DNA of 64,000 nt. Origin: an uncultured Syntrophomonadaceae bacterium (lineage in GTDB: Bacteria; Bacillota; Dethiobacteria; DTU022). The stretch spans positions 1,721 through 65,720 of the forward strand of contig CAYMIW010000010.1 of assembly GCA_964390725.1 (NCBI GenBank), in the 5' to 3' direction. A program made the translations under genes and the position numbers. The notes beneath the pieces were generated by a model, which was not told the DNA's origin, did no database searches, and saw only the letters and a program-made list of their open reading frames with translations. Numbering within the stretch: position 1 is the first letter of the stretch; the number at the start of each line of letters is the position of its first letter. Below, one piece after another: positions 1-62,672 of this stretch.

Positions 1-90
1 CCAAATACGGGAGGCGGGGGGATTTCTCCCCCTACCCTGGCCTGCCACCATAGTGTTTCAGACACTGTAGGTGAACAGGCTCGGAGGCTT
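1..90 (-). ncRNA. Moco (molybdenum cofactor) riboswitch-like RNA motif, truncated by the window edge
   Basis: Minus strand reads CTCCGAGCCTGTTCACC-TACAGTGTCTGAAACACTAT-GGTGGCAGGCC-AGGGT-AGGGGGAGAAATCCCCCC-GCCTCCCGTATTTGG. P2 is GCCTGTTCACC/GGTGGCAGGC, a P3 hairpin is present, P4 is GGGGGA-GAAA-TCCCCC, and the 3' end matches the hallmark GCCTCCCGTAYYTGG of the Moco motif. Confidence 0.85.
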
Positions 91-106
91 ATATTATTTA
101 TTTAAT

Positions 107-2102: not shown

Positions 2103-3422
2103 ATGCTTTCACTGATTGGTATTGCCCCCCACCCCGCAATTATTATTCCCGAAATCGGAAAAAGTGAACTGGATAAGGTAAGTAAAACTGTTACCGGGAT
2201 GAGAAAACTCGGTAAACTATTTAAGGAAGAATCGCCGGAGCTGCTGATTGTAATAACCCCTCATGGTTCTGCTTTCAGGGAAGGGCCTGCTATTCTTACC
2301 GGTAAACAACTCAAAGGTAATTTTGGACAGTTTGGGTTTCCTTCGATTCGGGTTGAATTTGAAACTGATCAGCAATTGCTGGAACTGGTAAAACAGGAGA
2401 CTGCAGATGGATTAGTTTATCCGGTCTTTATGGAAGGCAGCGGCAGTCTTGATCATGGAGCCATGGTCCCCCTCTACTATCTTAATGAAGCGGGCTGTAA
2501 GGTGCCAGGTTTACACATTACTTTTGGGTTTAACCCACCCCGTGATTTGTATCAATTCGGGCAGGCTCTCAGAAGGGCTGTAGATAAAAGAGGTCTAAAA
2601 ACTGCTGTTTTAGCCAGTGGAGACCTGTCACATCGCTTAATACCCGGAGCTCCTGCCGGTTATAACCCCCGGGGGGCAGAATATGATCGCCTTCTTGCCG
2701 AGCAGTTAGGCAGTGGTAAAGTAGAAGAAATATTAGATATTGATCCTGTTTTAATAGAAGAGGCAGGGGAGTGTGGTTATCGCTCCTTTGTGATTGCTCT
2801 GGGGACCATTGCCGGTGAAAAATTTGAAACAGATATTTTTTCTTATGAAGGCCCATTTGGAGTTGGTTATCTCGTGGCTGCTATAAAGCCCCGGGTCGAA
2901 GGGAATAATCCTGAATCAAACCCGGCAAAACTGGCCCGTGAAGTTCTTGAACAATACTTTTCCGGCGTAGAAAAGGGTTTGGAATTCTCCGGCGGGGGAC
3001 AGCTGTTCCAGGAAAAGGCCGGGGCATTTGTTTCTTTGAAAAAAAATAGCAAGCTGCGCGGTTGTATCGGCACAGTTGAACCAGTCAGAAAGAATCTTTA
3101 TGAAGAAATAAAGGCAAATGCTGTAAGCGCAGCAGTTCAGGATCCCCGGTTTTCGCCGGTCAGTGCCGACGAACTGGGGGATATTTCTATATCAGTTGAT
3201 GTTTTAAGTCCCCTGGAGAAAATATCAGGGATAAAAGAGCTCAATCCGGAAAAATACGGAGTGCTTGTGCGCAGTGGTCATCGCTCCGGCTTGCTGTTGC
3301 CCGACCTTGAGGGGATAGATACACCTGAAACCCAGGTATCTATTGCCATGCAAAAAGCCGGTATAAGTTCTGATCAACCTGTTGAGCTATATCGTTTTAC
3401 AGTAACCCGCTACCGGGAGTAA
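2103..3422 (+). CDS. amrA: LigB/MEMO-like domain fused to AMMECR1 domain (AmmeMemoRadiSam proteins B+A)
   Basis: N-terminal PHPAII, TPH, LDHGAMVPL, SGDLSH, EAGECG, YEGPFGVGY; C-terminal GAFVSLKK..LRGCIGT..AVQDPRF..GLLLP. Start set at ATG 2103 (GGTG RBS) rather than TTG 2004. Confidence 0.85.
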   Translation: MLSLIGIAPHPAIIIPEIGKSELDKVSKTVTGMRKLGKLFKEESPELLIVITPHGSAFREGPAILTGKQLKGNFGQFGFPSIRVEFETDQQLLELVKQETADGLVYPVFMEGSGSLDHGAMVPLYYLNEAGCKVPGLHITFGFNPPRDLYQFGQALRRAVDKRGLKTAVLASGDLSHRLIPGAPAGYNPRGAEYDRLLAEQLGSGKVEEILDIDPVLIEEAGECGYRSFVIALGTIAGEKFETDIFSYEGPFGVGYLVAAIKPRVEGNNPESNPAKLAREVLEQYFSGVEKGLEFSGGGQLFQEKAGAFVSLKKNSKLRGCIGTVEPVRKNLYEEIKANAVSAAVQDPRFSPVSADELGDISISVDVLSPLEKISGIKELNPEKYGVLVRSGHRSGLLLPDLEGIDTPETQVSIAMQKAGISSDQPVELYRFTVTRYRE

Positions 3423-3452: not shown

Positions 3453-4454
3453 TTGCACAGGGCATTATACCAGGAACCTGCAGGAAACAAGGTGCGCTGT
3501 ATGCTGTGTCCGCAGGTTTGCCTGCTGGGTGAAGGGCAGACAGGCGATTGCGGGGTTCGGGTGGTTGAATCAGGTACGTTGTATACCATGAACTATGGTT
3601 GTCTGGCTGCTGCCAACGTGGATCCGATTGAGAAAAAACCTCTTTATCACTTTTATCCCGGCCACAGTATTCTTTCTCTCGGCACAATTGGCTGTAATTT
3701 ACACTGTTCATTCTGTCAGAACTGGGCCCTGGCCAGGGGAGATAATCACCTTTGTCGTGAAGAGATCAGCCCGGAGTCAGTTCTGGCCATGCTGGAAAGT
3801 AGAAGGGAAGATAATCAGCTGGCCGGTGTGGCTTACACTTATAATGAGCCCTTAATCTGGTACGAGTTCGTTCTCCGGACAGCAGAACTTCTTCATAAGC
3901 ATGGATACCGAAACGTTCTGGTTACAAATGGTTTTATCAATCTCGATCCGCTGATGGAAATGCTACCTTATATTGATGCAATGAATATTGATGTTAAGGG
4001 CTTTACAGATCAATTTTATCGTGAGTACTGCCGCGGAAGAAAAAAACCTGTACTCAGAACTGTTGAGAAAGCAGTTGAAAGTTGTCATGTAGAAATAACC
4101 TGCCTGCTAATACCATCTTTAAATGATAGCCCGGCAGAACAACAAGAACTGGCAAGTTGGCTGGGCAGTCTCAGCCCCGACCTGGTTTTGCATTATTCAA
4201 GGTATTTTCCCAACTACCGGATGGAGCTTCCGCCCACGCCTGAATCAACCCTGAAACGTACCCTTGAAATAGCCAGAAAGCACCTTCACTATGTATATCC
4301 AGGGAATATTGATCTTCCCGGCGGAGCAGATACTATCTGCCCGAATTGTTCCAACCTGCTAGTATCACGCTCGGGATACCGGGTCAGGATGGTGGGTCTC
4401 GATGGCAACCGCTGCAACAACTGTAACAGCGAGATAAGTATAGTAGTTTCGTAA
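3453..4454 (+). CDS. amrS: AmmeMemoRadiSam system radical SAM enzyme
   Basis: CMLCPQVC..CGVR N-terminus, DPIEKKPLYHF, GCNLHCSFCQN, TYNEP; adjacent to the amrA fusion. Confidence 0.9.
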   Translation: MHRALYQEPAGNKVRCMLCPQVCLLGEGQTGDCGVRVVESGTLYTMNYGCLAAANVDPIEKKPLYHFYPGHSILSLGTIGCNLHCSFCQNWALARGDNHLCREEISPESVLAMLESRREDNQLAGVAYTYNEPLIWYEFVLRTAELLHKHGYRNVLVTNGFINLDPLMEMLPYIDAMNIDVKGFTDQFYREYCRGRKKPVLRTVEKAVESCHVEITCLLIPSLNDSPAEQQELASWLGSLSPDLVLHYSRYFPNYRMELPPTPESTLKRTLEIARKHLHYVYPGNIDLPGGADTICPNCSNLLVSRSGYRVRMVGLDGNRCNNCNSEISIVVS

Positions 4455-4651
4455 TAAAAGTAAAGAAATCATTTATCAGCCTGCCCGGGGTTGCTTCAGT
4501 TTCGCTTCTTGGTTAAAATATTCTTTGAGTTAATATTTGTTTTTACAGCTGATTAAAGGTTTTTTAGAGTTTTTAAGCGAAGTATAGGAAAGTTTAAGTA
4601 TAATGGATACGGCCTGCCCGGGCTGAATAATAACCAGGGGTTTAAACCATA

Positions 4652-5485
4652 GTGGCTATCTGGGAAAGCATTGTTGCAGCAATTATGCAGTTGAATGTTG
4701 AATGGCGCGATATCGTTGATATTGTGATTATGTCGTATGTTTTTTATCGTTTAATCCTGATTATTCGCGGCACAAGGGCAGAACAGCTTGTTAAAGGGTT
4801 GATCATTCTTCTTTTAGCCATGGTTATCAGTGATCAGGTTGGTTTTGATGCCTTCAACTGGACCCTCCGGCAGGTAATGACCATCGGGTTAATTGCTATT
4901 CCAATTGTTTTCCAGCCAGAGCTGCGCCGGGCTCTTGAACACCTGGGCAGGGGGAAAATATTTAAAACACCATACTGGAACTGGAGTACGCAGGATTTCG
5001 AGAGTATGCTTACCGAGCTAATCAAGGCTATTCCGGTTCTCGTTAAAAAGCGGATCGGTGCGCTTATCGTTATAGAAAGAACAACCGGCCTAAAAGACTG
5101 GGTTAGTACTGGCATTCCCATAGAAGGTGTGGTCACTGCGGAACTGCTGATTAATATATTCTTTCCCCGCAGTCCCCTTCACGACGGAGCGGTGATTATG
5201 CAGGGCAACCAGGTAGTTGCGGCAGGCTGTTACCTGCCTCTTACCGAAGATCCCACATTAAGTAAAGAGCTGGGCACCAGGCACCGGGCAGCTATTGGTA
5301 TCAGCGAAAATTCCGACGCTGTTGCAATTGTAATATCTGAAGAAACGGGTATTATTTCAATTGCCCATGATGGGGTGCTGACCCGTTATCTTGATGAGAA
5401 AAAATTGCGGTCGGTTCTTCGCGAGTTGTTGTCTCCCGAGCGTAGTGAAGGATTAAGTTTTTGGTCCCGGAGGGCGAATAAGTAA
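4652..5485 (+). CDS. cdaA: Diadenylate cyclase CdaA
   Basis: Three N-terminal TM segments, PLHDGA and LGTRHRAA catalytic motifs; cdaR-glmM synteny. Confidence 0.95.
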   Translation: MAIWESIVAAIMQLNVEWRDIVDIVIMSYVFYRLILIIRGTRAEQLVKGLIILLLAMVISDQVGFDAFNWTLRQVMTIGLIAIPIVFQPELRRALEHLGRGKIFKTPYWNWSTQDFESMLTELIKAIPVLVKKRIGALIVIERTTGLKDWVSTGIPIEGVVTAELLINIFFPRSPLHDGAVIMQGNQVVAAGCYLPLTEDPTLSKELGTRHRAAIGISENSDAVAIVISEETGIISIAHDGVLTRYLDEKKLRSVLRELLSPERSEGLSFWSRRANK

Positions 5486-15668: not shown

Positions 15669-16151
15669 TTAACAACCCATCTCCTTCAGTATTCTTGCCA
15701 GGACAAAGAGTCTTTCACTAATCAGTTCATCATCCTTACTTAAAGCTTCCTTGAACAGCTTAATGTCTTCATCAATCATTTCGTTACCGGTGCAGATTTC
15801 AAGACTCATGGCATCTCCCTGCAGGCCAATTCTTTCCAGTAAAGTTTTCTCCGGATCATAAAGCTTATCATAGCGGTAAGATTCACGAAAATGCTGCATA
15901 GCCCTGCAGACCATTATAGCCAGGTCAAGCACACGGTGCATGGGCATCTCTTCCGACTGGCGGGACCACTTTTCACCAGTATGCCGCCATACTTTTGCCG
16001 AAACGTCTACCTTGCCGCGATCGTTCCACTGGGCCAGGCCCAGCGATAGACCCTTGGCATCAGACTCATACGCATAACGACCGTCTACGTTCTCATAGTT
16101 TTCTACCACTATAACCGGCTTATGCTTCAATGTGGTTGGAATTTTCATCAC
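15669..16151 (-). CDS. Conserved Clostridia-type hypothetical protein (DUF6530-like)
   Basis: MKIPTTLKHKPVI..DAKGLSLGLAQWNDRGKVD.SAKVWR..WSRQSEE pattern, recognised from memory. Confidence 0.65.
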   Translation of the reverse strand: MMKIPTTLKHKPVIVVENYENVDGRYAYESDAKGLSLGLAQWNDRGKVDVSAKVWRHTGEKWSRQSEEMPMHRVLDLAIMVCRAMQHFRESYRYDKLYDPEKTLLERIGLQGDAMSLEICTGNEMIDEDIKLFKEALSKDDELISERLFVLARILKEMGC

Positions 16152-16302: not shown

Positions 16303-17634
16303 CTAGATATTCAGGTACCAGGTGGCGATGGAAAAATAAATTATAACACCTACAATATCTGCTATTGAGGTTACCAGCGGCCCGCTTGCCGTGGCCGGGT
16401 CAATATTTACCTTACTGAAAATAAAAGGAAGGCACATGCCCATGGTACTGCCAACCAGGACAACTGCGATCATGGAAAGCGCTACAACAACAGCTACGTC
16501 AATCCCACCCCTGAAATAGCCCACTGCCAGAACGGCAACTCCCAAAATAATGCCGAGCGGTAAAGCGGTTATCACTTCTTTTTTCAGCAGCTTGAACCAG
16601 TTTTCAATTTTTACTTCACCCAGGGCCATGGCCCTGATCATCAACGTCGCAGCCTGTGCTCCCGCATTACCGGCACTGTCAATAAGAAGCGGCATAAAGA
16701 AAACCAGGGCGATTACAGCCTGAATAATCTCCTCAAAATGGGCTATAGTTGCCCCTGAAAAAATATTAACAAATATTAACAGCAAGAGCCAGGGCAGTCT
16801 TCTTCTGATCAGAAAGAAAGGACTGGCATCCAGCACATTCATATCTATTTTACCAATGGTTGCCATTTTGTGGAAGTCTTCCGTGTTTTCTTCTTCAATA
16901 ACATCAACAATGTCATCAACAGTGATTATGCCGACCAGGCGGTTCTCATTGTCAGTTATCGGCATGGCGATCAGGTCGTATTTTTTCATTAAGTCGGCCA
17001 CGTCTTCTTTGTCGTCTAAGGTGTTGGCATGAATTATTTCTTCGCGCATAATCTCTTTGATTTTCTTTTCCGGTGGGGCAATAACCAGGTCTCTCAGTGA
17101 TAAAACCCCTTCCAGGTGCCTGGCTGAATCGGTAACATAGCAGGTATAAATGGTTTCCTTGTCGAGGGCAATGCTTCTAACCTTTTCAAGAGCCTGCAGG
17201 GCGGTCATTTCTTTTTTGAGATCAACAAATTCGATGGTCATCAGGCTGCCGGCTGAGTCTTCCGGGTAATTAAGGAACTGGTTGATCAGTTTTCGCTCCG
17301 TATCGGTGGAATTACGCAGAATGCGTTTCACCACGTTGGCAGGGATTTCCTCCAAAAAGTCAATCTTGTCATCAAAGTTGAGATCATTTAGGATATCCTG
17401 TAGTTCTTTTTCATTAACCAGGACATATAAATCAGACTGGCTTTCTGAGGAAATCTCTGCAAAAACATCGGCAGCAATCTCTTTCGGCAGAAGCCTAAAA
17501 ACCAGCAGGGTGGTTTTGGGGTCAAGTTCATCAAGAAGTTCGGCGATATCGGCTATGTGGCCCTTGGCTAACTCTTTTTGCAGAGAGGTATAATTTTTCT
17601 TCTCCAGTAATTCATTAATTAATTCTTTATTCAT
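16303..17634 (-). CDS. mgtE: Magnesium transporter MgtE
   Basis: MgtE_N helices, DSAGSLMT, tandem CBS domains, RLPWLL, GNAGAQAAT, DPATASGPLVTSIADIVG. Confidence 0.97.
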   Translation of the reverse strand: MNKELINELLEKKNYTSLQKELAKGHIADIAELLDELDPKTTLLVFRLLPKEIAADVFAEISSESQSDLYVLVNEKELQDILNDLNFDDKIDFLEEIPANVVKRILRNSTDTERKLINQFLNYPEDSAGSLMTIEFVDLKKEMTALQALEKVRSIALDKETIYTCYVTDSARHLEGVLSLRDLVIAPPEKKIKEIMREEIIHANTLDDKEDVADLMKKYDLIAMPITDNENRLVGIITVDDIVDVIEEENTEDFHKMATIGKIDMNVLDASPFFLIRRRLPWLLLLIFVNIFSGATIAHFEEIIQAVIALVFFMPLLIDSAGNAGAQAATLMIRAMALGEVKIENWFKLLKKEVITALPLGIILGVAVLAVGYFRGGIDVAVVVALSMIAVVLVGSTMGMCLPFIFSKVNIDPATASGPLVTSIADIVGVIIYFSIATWYLNI

Positions 17635-17640
17635 AATAAA

Positions 17641-17709
17641 GCCTCCTTAAACAGTATATCGGGAGGCCTTCCTGTAAGGAAACAGAAAGCCTCCCTGCAG
17701 GAGGCTTTT
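17641..17709 (-). terminator. Attenuator hairpin plus SD-sequestering hairpin in the mgtE leader
   Basis: AAAGCCTCC-TGCAG-GGAGGCTTT-CTGTTT immediately after the leader stop; downstream GCCTCCC (17667-17661) is complementary to the mgtE SD GGAGGC (17646-17641). Confidence 0.75.
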
Positions 17710-17800
17710 ACTTGATAACTAGATCGAGCATATATGTACTGAACGGGCCTCCTGAAAGGTTGAGATAAAAGTTGGTACTATGCGAAGGTCCGCTGTCCAT
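17708..17800 (-). CDS. mgtE leader peptide, 30 aa: MDSGPSHSTNFYLNLSGGPFSTYMLDLVIK
   Basis: GAGGTGA RBS 5 nt upstream of ATG 17800; open frame to TAA 17710-17708, directly abutting the attenuator hairpin. Absent from the ORF track. Confidence 0.75.
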   Translation of the reverse strand: MDSGPSHSTNFYLNLSGGPFSTYMLDLVIK

Positions 17801-17975
17801 ATAATTCACCTCGATTATCCGGATATTTATTCTGCCGGTAATGGTTTATCCTAAACTCTTATTGCCTGATTTTACCTGAAACTACTTATTATATTAACCC
17901 TTCTCTTTTTTATATGTCAACAACATTTATAAATAAGGCCAGATTAACAGGCAATATTCAGCAGAAACCAGTATA

Positions 17976-18033
17976 TTGACAGGGAACGGGGATTTTTTTA
18001 TAATTATAAATGAACAATTACTCATGTGTTCAT
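17976..18033 (+). promoter_or_regulatory. Consensus sigma-A promoter and ArsR/SmtB-type operator
   Basis: TTGACA (17976-17981), 17 nt, TATAAT (17999-18004); ATGAACA-N10-TGTTCAT at 18010-18033. Confidence 0.85.
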
Positions 18034-18056
18034 ATGAACTTAAGGGGCAGAGATTG

Positions 18057-18422
18057 ATGAATGATCAGGACAATGAAAAGTTGCAGTGTGATTTTACCAT
18101 TGTGCACCGGGATGTGGTAGAAAAGGTGCGTAGAGCTATGCCGGGGGAAGAAAAACTTTATGATCTTGCGGAATTTTTTAAGGTATTTGGAGATTCGACC
18201 AGGATTAAAATTATTTGGGCCCTTGTAGAAGAAGAGATGTGTGTATGCGATATTGCTTTCCTTCTGAATATGACCCATTCGGCAATATCACATCAATTAC
18301 GGGTTCTTAAACAGGCTCGCCTGGTGAAGCCTCGCCGGGAGGGGAAAAATATATTTTACTCACTGGACGATCAACATATTGGAGCAATATTTAAACAAGG
18401 CCTGGAGCATATTAATGAATAA
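18057..18422 (+). CDS. ArsR/SmtB-family metal-sensing repressor (CadC/ZiaR-like)
   Basis: LAEFFKVFGDSTRIKII..EMCVCDIA..SAISHQLRVLK..FYSLDDQHI..LEH; start moved to ATG 18057, downstream of the promoter. Confidence 0.9.
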   Translation: MNDQDNEKLQCDFTIVHRDVVEKVRRAMPGEEKLYDLAEFFKVFGDSTRIKIIWALVEEEMCVCDIAFLLNMTHSAISHQLRVLKQARLVKPRREGKNIFYSLDDQHIGAIFKQGLEHINE

Positions 18423-20361
18423 ACAAAAAAGACTAATAAACAGCTCGGAATATGCAAATGAAACAGGAGCATGCAACTGCAGTAACGGTTGCAATTACCA
18501 GGATGCAGGAGTAGATGCTTCTTCGACTTTAAAGAGGAAAGCAGGCTTCTATATACTTGGCTTTCTTATATTTATAGCCGGCTTTTTTGTGCCTGAAAAT
18601 ATGATATTGAAATTGATATTTTTTGGGGCAGCTTACCTTATCTTTGGTGCTTCGGTTTTATTAAGAGCTACCCTTAATATTGCAACAGGGAAAATATTTG
18701 ATGAAAACTTTTTAATGTCAATCGCTACCCTCGGTGCTTTCGCGATAGGAGAATATCCTGAAGGCGTGGCCGTAATGGTTTTTTACCAGGTTGGAGAGCT
18801 GTTGCAGGATAAAGCAGTAGATCGCTCCAAGCGGCAGATTAGCAGCTTGATTAATATTCGTCCTGATTATGCCAATTTACAAATAGATGGAAAAACTGAA
18901 AAAGTAAACCCCTCTAAAGTAAAAATGGGAGATCATATCATGGTTCGTCCCGGTGAACGCATACCTCTTGATGGGATAGTTATCGAAGGAAGTTCATCGA
19001 TTGACCTTTCAGCCCTTACGGGAGAATCGCTGCCCCGTGATGTTGCAGTCGGCGACGAAGTACTTTCAGGTTCCGTGAACCAGGGCGGGTTGCTCTCAGT
19101 GAAAGTCAGCAGCGAATTCAACCGATCCACGGTCAGTCGTATTCTGTCCCTGGTTGAAAATGCCTCGGCACGCAAGGCTCGCACTGAGCAGTTTATAACT
19201 CGTTTTGCAGCCTATTATACTCCTGCAGTGGTTTTTGTTGCCCTGGCCATAGCCTTTTTGCCGCCCCTTTTACAAACCGGCCAGGAACTTTCAACCTGGG
19301 TGTACCGGGCCCTGGTATTTTTGGTTATATCCTGTCCCTGTGCCCTGGTTATTTCAATTCCGCTTGGTTTCTTCGGTGGCATCGGGGGTGCTTCCCGACG
19401 CGGTATCCTGGTTAAAGGAGGCAATTACCTGGAGGCTTTAAGCCGAATTGACACGGTAATATTTGATAAGACAGGTACCCTTACCCATGGTCATTATACT
19501 GTTGAAAAAGTTGAAAATACTGAAGGATTCAGCAGTGATCAACTACTGCATTATGGGGCTGCTGCTGCTTTGCATTCAACTCATCCTGTTGCCCGTTCGG
19601 TTGGCCGGGCCTGGACAGAGCCGATTAATCAGGAAAAATTGTATCAATACCAGGAAATCCCCGGCCGGGGGATCCGGGTTCAATACGATAAGTCACGGAT
19701 ATTAATGGGTAATCGTGAACTGCTTGCCGAAGAGGGGTTGGAAATAAAGCCTGACAAGGATCAAAGGGCAAGGGTTTACCTTGCTGTTGATGGGCGCTAT
19801 GCCGGTAGTATTATTGTTTCTGATGAGCTTAAAGAGGATGCTGCTCCCGCTGTTGACCAGTTGAGGAAACTTGGGGTGAACAGGGTTGTTATGCTGACCG
19901 GTGACAAAAAACCAGTTGCTGAAGATATCGGTCGCAGGCTGAACCTGGATCAGGTGTATGCCGAACTTTTACCTGATCAGAAGCTGGCAATAATCGAGAA
20001 GCTGGAAAAACTGAAGAATGGCAATGGCAAGAACGTTTTTGTCGGTGATGGTATTAACGATGCGCCTGCGTTGGCCCGGGCGGAAATTGGAGTTGCTATG
20101 GGCGGGGTAGCCTCCGATGCAGCCATTGAGGCGGCTGATATAGTCCTGATGACCGGACAGCCGTTAAAGCTGGTTGAAGCATTACAGATAGCCCGTAAAA
20201 CAAAGAACATTGTAATGCAGAATATAGTTCTTGCTCTCGGGGTGAAAGCAGTAATTATGGCTCTCGGGCTTTTCGGTTTTGCTTCAATGTGGGGAGCAGT
20301 TTTTGCCGATGTTGGCGTAGCCCTACTGGCTACCTTGAATGCAATCAGGGCAATGCACTAA
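18415..20361 (+). CDS. cadA: P1B-type heavy-metal (Cd/Zn) ATPase
   Basis: TGES, SCPCAL, DKTGT, HP, GDGINDAP, ADVG; Cys-rich short N-terminus. Confidence 0.92.
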   Translation: MNKQKRLINSSEYANETGACNCSNGCNYQDAGVDASSTLKRKAGFYILGFLIFIAGFFVPENMILKLIFFGAAYLIFGASVLLRATLNIATGKIFDENFLMSIATLGAFAIGEYPEGVAVMVFYQVGELLQDKAVDRSKRQISSLINIRPDYANLQIDGKTEKVNPSKVKMGDHIMVRPGERIPLDGIVIEGSSSIDLSALTGESLPRDVAVGDEVLSGSVNQGGLLSVKVSSEFNRSTVSRILSLVENASARKARTEQFITRFAAYYTPAVVFVALAIAFLPPLLQTGQELSTWVYRALVFLVISCPCALVISIPLGFFGGIGGASRRGILVKGGNYLEALSRIDTVIFDKTGTLTHGHYTVEKVENTEGFSSDQLLHYGAAAALHSTHPVARSVGRAWTEPINQEKLYQYQEIPGRGIRVQYDKSRILMGNRELLAEEGLEIKPDKDQRARVYLAVDGRYAGSIIVSDELKEDAAPAVDQLRKLGVNRVVMLTGDKKPVAEDIGRRLNLDQVYAELLPDQKLAIIEKLEKLKNGNGKNVFVGDGINDAPALARAEIGVAMGGVASDAAIEAADIVLMTGQPLKLVEALQIARKTKNIVMQNIVLALGVKAVIMALGLFGFASMWGAVFADVGVALLATLNAIRAMH

Positions 20362-62590: not shown

Positions 62591-62672
62591 TTATCAGGAA
62601 AAGGCAAACCCATAGCAATATGGGGACGCAAAGCCATGGGTCCAACAGGAGGATCGCCAGGTTGCCCTTATA
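62591..62672 (+). ncRNA. c-di-GMP-I (GEMM) riboswitch aptamer
   Basis: GGCAAACCCATA-GCAA-TATGGGGACGCAAAGCCATGGGTCC..GGATCGCCAGGTTGCC: GNRA tetraloop, GGACGCAAAGCC core, P3 pairing, G20/C92 equivalents. Confidence 0.9.

Follow-up and report, generated by a model that had tools for sequence, protein, structure and literature searches.

In Bacillota, mgtE is controlled by the M-box riboswitch (ykoK, RF00380) through terminator formation at high Mg2+, and this RNA is regarded as the main regulator of Mg2+ uptake in Gram-positive bacteria. In enterobacteria, the output of the mgtA leader is Rho-dependent termination. To our knowledge, ribosome-based Mg2+ sensing by leader peptides (MgtL, MgtP, and MgtQ) is known only from enterobacteria, and leader-peptide transcription attenuators are thought to be rare in the group of bacteria considered here. 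Previous studies indicate that E. coli MgtL aborts translation within MEPDPT, more strongly at low Mg2+, and that an N-terminal position and small residues close to the peptidyl transferase center favor this type of abortion (10.1101/2021.02.02.429294). In the case of MgtQ, inefficient translation (Asp2, Glu5) frees a sequestered ribosome-binding site via competing stem-loops (PMC8092293; PMC3641672). SecM arrests the ribosome when Gly occupies the P site and Pro-tRNA the A site (PMC10951299), and the M-box-controlled upstream open reading frame (uORF) Rv1805A of M. tuberculosis has a conserved N-terminus with an invariant proline (PMC12810186). Here, we describe the leader of mgtE in a 64-kb stretch of DNA from an uncultured Syntrophomonadaceae bacterium (contig CAYMIW010000010.1); the whole stretch is called the window below, and labels such as L001 and L201 denote fetched related loci or leaders. 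This leader likely acts as a functional cis-acting leader-peptide switch for mgtE, and we lean towards a full mechanism in which a ribosome-mediated attenuator of mgtE combines a translated leader peptide with a chain of alternative hairpins.

The mgtE gene (16303–17634, minus strand, ATG at 17634) encodes a protein of 443 residues with MgtE_N, CBS, and MgtE domains according to Pfam, which is 98% identical to a protein of a Syntrophomonadaceae metagenome-assembled genome (MAG). On the same strand, a sigma-70-like promoter at 17891–17920 (TTGACA, 18 nt, and TAATAT, which overlaps TATAAT; 10 of 12 matches in the promoter scan) is followed by a leader of ~245 nt and then by mgtE, and the leader of L001 has the same promoter layout, TTGACA...TAATATAAT. 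The Shine-Dalgarno sequence (SD) GAGGTGA (17806–17812) stands 5 nt before an ATG at 17800, which opens a leader ORF of 30 codons plus TAA (17708–17800, TAA at 17710–17708, minus strand) with the peptide MDSGPSHSTNFYLNLSGGPFSTYMLDLVIK; the ORF list also gives this frame, starting from an upstream GTG. The first five codons (17786–17800, minus strand) encode the N-terminal motif M-D-S-G-P, for which locus comparison and codon usage give the family consensus M-[D/E]-x-G-P; here, the ribosome is proposed to stall or abort when Gly4 occupies the P site and Pro5 the A site.

Five mutually complementary segments lie within and behind this ORF, all on the minus strand. Segment A (CAGGAGGC, 17747–17754) is located within codons 16–18 and is the putative 5′ arm of an antiterminator, as compensatory A:B pairs and RNAalifold suggest. 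Segment B (GCCTCCTG, 17698–17705) has three predicted partners on the basis of sequence, folding, and alignment, namely A in the antiterminator, C in the terminator, and E over a long range. Segment C (GGGAGGC, 17689–17695) can serve as the 3′ arm of the terminator or as the 5′ arm of a C:D hairpin, and TTTCTGTTT lies directly 3′ of it. Segment D (GCCTCCC, 17661–17667) is an anti-SD that can pair with C or E, and segment E (GGAGGC, 17641–17646) is the SD of mgtE. The C:D hairpin is prolonged by pairing of CTTTCTG with CAGGAAG. The first-pass annotation, made from the letters alone, had described the uORF with its SD, the five segments, and the SD of mgtE, and each of its coordinates matches the minus-strand sequence. 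It had also read B:C as a terminator hairpin; the terminator scan agrees, finding AAAGCCTCCTGCAGGGAGGCTTT at 17708–17686 with a T-rich tail, and the predicted intrinsic terminator (17676–17708) has a 10-pair stem AAAGCCTCC/GGAGGCTTT and the tail CTGTTTCCTT. GGAGGC occurs 30 times on both strands of the 64 kb against 29 expected, which means no window-wide enrichment. In contrast, five copies are found inside 112 nt of the leader with strictly alternating strands, where ~0.05 copies are expected; the cluster is therefore not a product of chance.

To define the family, 80 genomic loci encoding MgtE relatives (43–98% identity) from Bacillota MAGs and isolates served as the comparison sample. A strict search for ATG/GTG/TTG followed by Asp-Ser-Gly-Pro codons found a uORF in 11 of the 80 loci and in the window, always with a strong SD, 110–200 nt upstream of mgtE, and on the coding strand; the pattern occurred nowhere else in these loci on either strand. 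With the relaxed pattern M-[D/E]-x-G-P, 29 of the 80 loci carried the uORF, all with an SD and 80–255 nt upstream of mgtE, and the two other plus-strand matches in 530 kb both lacked an SD. The carriers include Clostridium botulinum ATCC 25763, C. sporogenes, C. niameyense, and Anoxynatronum buryatiense, as well as MAGs labelled Desulfosporosinus, Syntrophomonadaceae, and Filifactoraceae, and further variants of the motif (MESGP, MDNGP, MDGGP, and MDAGP) are present among close MgtE relatives. A metagenome pattern scan with GGTG-N(4-10)-ATGGAYAGYGGNCC gave an mgtE-like gene in 3 of at least 120 loci among the matches listed (L140, L154, and L170), and these three were kept as members. The remaining matches listed were without an mgtE-like gene and were set aside unused as chance matches.

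The gene downstream of the leader uORF is always mgtE or a gene for an MgtE_N-CBS protein. In L170 (minus strand, uORF at reverse-complement position 3401) and L140 (uORF at 4043), an M-box and then an MDSGP uORF precede the gene for a soluble protein of ~415 residues with PRC-barrel, MgtE_N, and CBS domains, from which the MgtE membrane domain is absent. The leader therefore also appears to control a cytosolic protein that shares the cytoplasmic domains of MgtE.

The codon and frame statistics were obtained from 38 distinct leaders. All 38 have the SD GGAGGTGAT, GGTGGTGAT, or GTTGGTGAT at a constant spacing, and the start codon is ATG, GTG, or TTG. Codon 2 is GAC in 17 leaders, GAT in 17, and GAA in 4. 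Ser3, where present, is written AGY (12) or TCN (9), with four different codons in use. Gly4-Pro5 is found in all 38 leaders, although the search pattern itself required G and P, and their wobble positions vary freely (GGA12/GGT10/GGG8/GGC8 for Gly4 and CCT28/CCC8/CCA2 for Pro5). The open frame after codon 5 has a median length of 25.5 codons in frame 0 versus 9 and 2 in the other frames, and at least 15 open codons are present in frame 0 of 36 leaders, compared with 11 and 6 leaders for the other frames. Most motifs contain one acidic residue and one invariant Pro; MDPGP (L011–L016) and VDPGP (L042, L047) are the variants nearest to MEPDP, and Pro7 is present in 7 of the 38. The comparison thus shows a leader ORF that appears to be under selection for its first five residues, its strong SD, and an open frame reaching A.

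Beyond about residue 10, the peptide shows no conservation and its length ranges from 13 to 56 residues. The expectation of the first-pass annotation that the peptide would be conserved upstream of homologous mgtE genes is thus borne out for the N-terminal M-[D/E]-x-G-P and not for the residues beyond ~10. The L003 uORF carries a 6-nt in-frame insertion. Between the window and L001, whose MgtE proteins are 98% identical, the codon changes within the first 14 residues are synonymous and keep the peptide constant there. The two C-terminal halves share no similarity, yet both leaders contain segment A.

This pattern fits a cis-acting nascent peptide and misfits, as far as the sequences tell, both a free small protein and a pure RNA element. 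Small proteins regulate Mg2+ transporters in Salmonella and E. coli, and the uORF always adjoins mgtE, so that its product could be a small protein that acts in trans, regulating MgtE or joining it in a complex, in the manner of enterobacterial MgtR, MgtS, and MgtU. We give this reading very little credence, since the five N-terminal residues alone are conserved in peptides of such different lengths, the C-termini are unrelated even between loci with 98%-identical mgtE products and appear to be dictated by RNA pairing, and the leader peptides have no match in Pfam or NCBIfam. It is likewise very improbable that the leader is a protein-independent switch, that is, a new riboswitch or a direct Mg2+-sensing RNA in which the ORF is incidental. 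A promoter, a leader of ~170 nt, and a terminator are the usual layout of a riboswitch, the predicted fold of the leader is somewhat more stable than that of shuffled sequences (z = −2.2), and the constant AGT codon of Ser8, described below, hints at a nucleotide-level constraint. However, the substitutions are of the coding type (wobble changes, AGY/TCN exchange, ATG/GTG/TTG starts, SD spacing, and open frame), A:B is the sole conserved helix found, no Rfam family matches, and the region between codon 10 and A is conserved in neither sequence nor length.

We then compared the five-segment arrangement in 13 leaders of the closest clade (window, L001, L201, L002, L003, L203, L204, L207, L208, L210, L007, L005, and L209). 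Because a whole-leader MAFFT alignment misplaces segment D between subgroups, a core-anchored segment alignment of these leaders, curated by the analyst around the cores and named A2, was built and used for the following values. The structure consisting of A:B and C:D is 82% paired, with a covariation of 0.248 versus 0.171 in shuffles (0 of 500 shuffles reached it), and its pairing falls to 38–60% when the 3′ partners are slid by 1–3 columns. Compensatory pairs in A:B are GC10/AU3, CG9/UA4, and CG5/UA4, the first two without unpaired cells, and the C:D pair 42:68 is AU in 6 and GC in 3 leaders. The opposite structure, B:C and D:E, is 83% paired and largely invariant. In the uncurated MAFFT alignment, RNAalifold finds A:B as the sole consensus helix, with 3 compensatory pairs. 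The five-segment scheme of the first-pass annotation thus recurs in 13 related leaders, with compensatory changes in A:B, and the comparison shows that segments A–E are conserved and that the predicted A:B antiterminator covaries.

Outside the closest clade, the same principle is seen with other sequences, in that a segment inside the uORF pairs with the next segment, which otherwise sequesters the SD of mgtE. In L042, L047, L080, L050, and L051, this takes the form of an X:Y hairpin with Y complementary to the SD. The MDPGP group has the chain GGGAGCAGGCA : TGCCTCCTCCC : GGAGGC, and L060 has GCCACAA : TTGTGGC : GCCACAA.

Along the chain, A:B, B:C, C:D, and D:E are mutually exclusive pairings, and their succession was followed by folding transcripts of the window leader that end at different points. 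When the transcript ends after B, P(A:B) is 1.0; when the naked transcript ends at the T tract, P(B:C) is 0.95, and A:B therefore seems to form first and to be displaced later, as 2:3 is by 3:4 in trp. In the naked full-length leader, the SD of mgtE is unpaired with a probability of ~0.11, and the minimum free energy structure has B:E stacked on a 12-bp C:D hairpin. A mask for a ribosome footprint at codons 4–5 lowers the terminator probability of the window from 0.95 to 0.53 and raises P(A:B) up to 0.46, and it moves L003, L204, and L210 almost wholly to A:B. The naked start region pairs with A in L203, L204, L210, and L007, where the codon 4–5 mask frees A. The stall mask also increases the accessibility of the mgtE SD in L204, L042, L047, L050, L028, and L074. 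A helix between the start region ("segment 0") and A, similar to 1:2 in trp, is predicted in the window, L002, L003, L203, L204, L207, L210, and L007; we treat it as conjectural because its covariation could not be established. Equilibrium folding of 39 leaders with footprints at the stall site, in the middle of the ORF, and at the stop gave no uniform answer on polarity. The more targeted co-transcriptional folding informs on about half of the group-1 leaders; L001 and L201 come out neutral.

In the window and L001, the uORF ends before B is reached, and in L201 its stop precedes B by 35 nt; the stop falls into the terminator loop in L002, L003, L203, L204, L208, and L210 and lies beyond C in L005, L007, L207, and L209. 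The first-pass annotation had held that stalling at the stop would also give the ON state; because the position of the stop relative to B and C varies among the members, this cannot be a general feature. Under a reversed polarity, full translation of the leader would mask B or the anti-SD and couple to the mgtE start to give ON, and the motif would only throttle the passage of ribosomes. The stop of the window lies 3 nt before B and a mask there lifts the SD accessibility from 0.11 to 0.36, it is chiefly a ribosome positioned at the end of the uORF that opens the SD of L033, L034, L055, and L028, and the uORF ends 19–35 nt from the mgtE ATG in several members. We nevertheless regard reversed polarity as quite improbable. 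The stop is not conserved relative to B/C; a terminating ribosome would cover A in L201 and B and C in L002 and L003; the conserved, covarying A:B helix would be left without a role; and a cell would gain little from making less MgtE at low Mg2+. The uORFs of L154 and L060 cross the mgtE start out of frame, which favors occlusion over coupling.

In the mechanism towards which we lean, a ribosome would load at the strong SD of the uORF and, after four peptide bonds, would stall or abort while the P site carries peptidyl(M-D-S-G)-tRNA and the A site Pro-tRNA; by analogy with MgtL, this would be commoner at low free Mg2+. With no ribosome crossing A and with the start region covered, A:B would form and then C:D, which would block the B:C terminator and leave the mgtE SD (segment E) free, giving ON. 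At sufficient Mg2+, ribosomes would traverse the leader and strip A from B, so that the more stable B:C terminator together with SD sequestration by D:E or B:E would give OFF. The placement of the motif at codons 2–5 would allow a slow, uncoupled ribosome to take its deciding position before RNA polymerase reaches B and C. In relatives that bear an M-box, RNA-sensed and ribosome-sensed Mg2+ would act in series.

The structural part of the first-pass annotation is supported, and its proposal that the ribosome reads out Mg2+ is suggested by gene context and analogy; more precisely, the putative Mg2+ link rests on the regulated gene, the partnership with the M-box, and precedent. M-D-S-G-P, with an acidic residue, two small residues, and Pro right after the start, fits the profile of MgtL-type abortion. 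We put forward, with somewhat less than even confidence, that M-[D/E]-x-G-P is a minimal arrest or abort signal on a four-residue chain, which would turn the ribosome of Clostridia itself into a Mg2+ sensor for mgtE. The signal would have arisen separately from enterobacterial MgtL and been placed in series with the M-box, so that both Mg2+ readings must agree. The same leader peptide and A–E switch could instead report another signal, with Pro5 reading the supply of Pro-tRNA(Pro), the activity of elongation factor P, or translation capacity, and with the M-box giving the Mg2+ input in a two-signal logic. About half of the family already has an M-box Mg2+ sensor in series, sensors placed in tandem commonly respond to different signals, codon 5 always encodes Pro and Pro7 is frequent, and Salmonella mgtL reportedly responds to proline limitation too. 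We judge such a signal unlikely all the same, as members without an M-box, the window included, would have no Mg2+ control of a Mg2+ channel, a hungry-codon sensor needs neither D/E2 nor G4, and there is a single conserved Pro codon and no run.

Several observations weigh against the mechanism that we favor. We infer that the uORF is translated, that ribosomes stall on it, and that Mg2+ has an influence. With one acidic residue and one proline, the motif is weaker than EPDP. The RNA polymerase of Bacillota usually outpaces the ribosome, which makes ribosome-timed termination harder; a stall after 4 codons lessens this problem. That D/E2, G4, and P5 never vary is in part a matter of ascertainment, since the pattern used in the search demanded these residues; the wobble variation and the positional specificity are not due to it. 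Codon 8 is always AGT when it encodes Ser (AGTACC or AGTAGC, 16 of 38 leaders; window 17779–17777), a weak point that may reflect a nucleotide-level constraint or shared ancestry. The curation of alignment A2 around the cores is a possible source of bias, and the covariation rests on ~2–3 independent changes or lineages among 13 related sequences. In equilibrium folding, the stall mask is without effect in L001 and L201, and L033 and L034 resemble positive translational coupling. Finally, the position of the uORF stop is not conserved.

The relationship to the M-box was determined in the window and in the 80 loci. The leader of the window shows no M-box or other significant Rfam family, either at the gathering threshold or at E ≤ 10, and an nhmmer profile of six Rfam-confirmed M-boxes has no match in the window. 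The M-boxes of L007, L028, L051, L080, L140, and L170 served as positive controls and score 136–151 bits against a gathering score of 44 bits for RF00380. Matches to Phe_leader, mir-616, and STnc370 (E 0.15–9) were rejected, as they are far under the gathering score and consist mostly of GCCTCC/GGAGGC hairpins; for Phe_leader, 19–20 bits stand against a gathering score of 55, and the coverage is mainly the shared GCCTCC/GGAGGC terminator stem. The refuting condition named in the first-pass annotation, a recognized riboswitch in the cmscan result, is thus not observed in this leader. Its statement that the attenuator stands in place of an M-box is correct for the window and does not extend to the family, since 14 of the 29 uORF loci have an M-box directly upstream.

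Sorted by the nhmmer M-box profile and the uORF search, 14 of the 80 loci have both elements, 15 have the uORF only, 15 have the M-box only, and 36 (e.g., L010, L013, L019, and L023) lack both the M-box and the M-[DE]-x-G-P uORF in the 600 nt upstream; these 36 may carry other regulators or divergent motifs. The leader-peptide module is thus often an addition to the M-box and not its replacement. Where both occur, the M-box always comes first, followed by the uORF and then mgtE, with the uORF start ~60–90 nt past the aptamer and behind the M-box terminator. In the clade of the window, L004, L006, and L009 have the M-box only, L005, L007, L209, and L210 have both, and the window, L001–L003, and L201–L208 have the uORF only. 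B:C tends to have a T tract where the M-box is absent and is usually without one where the M-box is present (L210, L209, and L005), which suggests that the uORF module took over transcription termination upon loss of the riboswitch.

Compared with MgtL of the mgtA leader in Salmonella and E. coli, the leader described here has a similar short, presumably translated ORF before the gene of a Mg2+ importer, and the motif right after the initiator Met resembles that of MgtL in part, with an acidic residue and proline (MEPDP versus MD(S/P/A)GP). In both, failed translation through the motif would select an alternative RNA structure permitting expression of the transporter. However, MgtL belongs to Enterobacteria and a P-type ATPase and this leader to Clostridia and an MgtE channel, D/E-P alternates there and Gly-Pro is invariant here, and Rho-dependent termination is replaced by an intrinsic terminator and an SD-sequestering chain, often behind an M-box. 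Searches for homology to the enterobacterial mgtA leader gave no Rfam match at E ≤ 10 beyond chance-level terminator matches and no peptide match in NCBIfam or Pfam. MgtQ and MgtP of Salmonella mgtCBRU are also uORFs whose poor translation frees the ribosome-binding site of a Mg2+ transporter gene, but MgtQ has 8 codons, is intergenic, and acts on translation only, whereas the present ORF has ~30 codons in a 5′ leader with an added terminator, and the motif and the host differ. The M-box controls mgtE by termination, as this leader would; it is a protein-independent aptamer of ~165 nt, which the window leader does not match.

In the case of the trp, his, and phe attenuators, the similarities are a translated leader whose ORF contains one arm of the antiterminator, a terminator that exceeds the antiterminator in stability, and possibly a 1:2-like pairing of the start region with A in several members. 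In contrast, the 30-residue peptide has no run of regulatory codons, a five-residue N-terminal motif would sense instead, and two extra segments would carry the control to the SD. SecM (..RAG/P) and the RAPP-like arrest peptides have a comparable Gly-Pro junction, the invariance of which is here partly a product of the search pattern. In SecM, however, a critical Arg occupies position −3, where D/E is found here, the SecM chain is long and spans the tunnel compared with a 4-residue chain having three residues before Gly4, and the genes regulated by SecM/RAPP concern protein export (Sec/YidC) instead of mgtE. Rv1805A is a conserved small ORF directly behind an M-box with an invariant N-terminal Pro; compared by description, it differs in being specific to mycobacteria and upstream of pe20-ppe31, with a paralogue elsewhere and a trans role proposed by its authors. 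As a ribosome-mediated attenuator of a Mg2+ transporter, the element is distinct in its motif, its output, and its frequent tandem with a riboswitch. Searches of the full-text literature found no description of an mgtE leader peptide or of an MDSGP/MDxGP/VESGP motif, with most subscription journals outside their coverage, so that an earlier description is possible. What PMC11109978 calls the "mgtE motif" is an RNA of Thioalkalivibrio that bears no relation to this leader.

If the favored mechanism is true, the strategy of using the ribosome as a sensor arose independently for another transporter family, and the regulation of mgtE in genomes without an M-box would be accounted for. It would also add one more leader-peptide transcription attenuator in bacteria where such devices are thought rare, and offer a very short, easily mutated motif for the study of stalling or abortion at the start of elongation. 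The tandem of M-box and uORF is a natural system in which to ask why one ion is read twice, or whether two signals are read.

At the predicted 5′ end of the transcript, the window carries a direct repeat, CAGGTAAAATCAGGCAA, at 17862–17878 (minus strand), and L001 and L201 carry CAGGTAAAAACAGGTAA just past the −10 box; the repeat is thus kept in the three closest leaders. Directly downstream of mgtE and on the same strand is a gene for a DUF6530 protein (15669–16151, minus strand, E 2e-84). A perfect match to a TTGACA-17-TATAAT promoter (17976–18004, plus strand), which points away from the mgtE promoter, precedes an ArsR-family helix-turn-helix regulator and an overlapping P-type (E1-E2) ATPase (17976–20361, plus strand), a pair that looks like a metal-efflux operon beside the Mg2+ channel. 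Elsewhere, the window contains a c-di-GMP-I-GGC riboswitch (62594–62670, plus strand, 66 bits) and a Moco/tungsten riboswitch aptamer (1–98, minus strand, 59 bits) that is cut by the window end. Among the related loci, L003 has a NiCo riboswitch (2606–2692, minus strand) divergent from its mgtE leader, and L170 has a T-box leader (4513–4779, minus strand) elsewhere.

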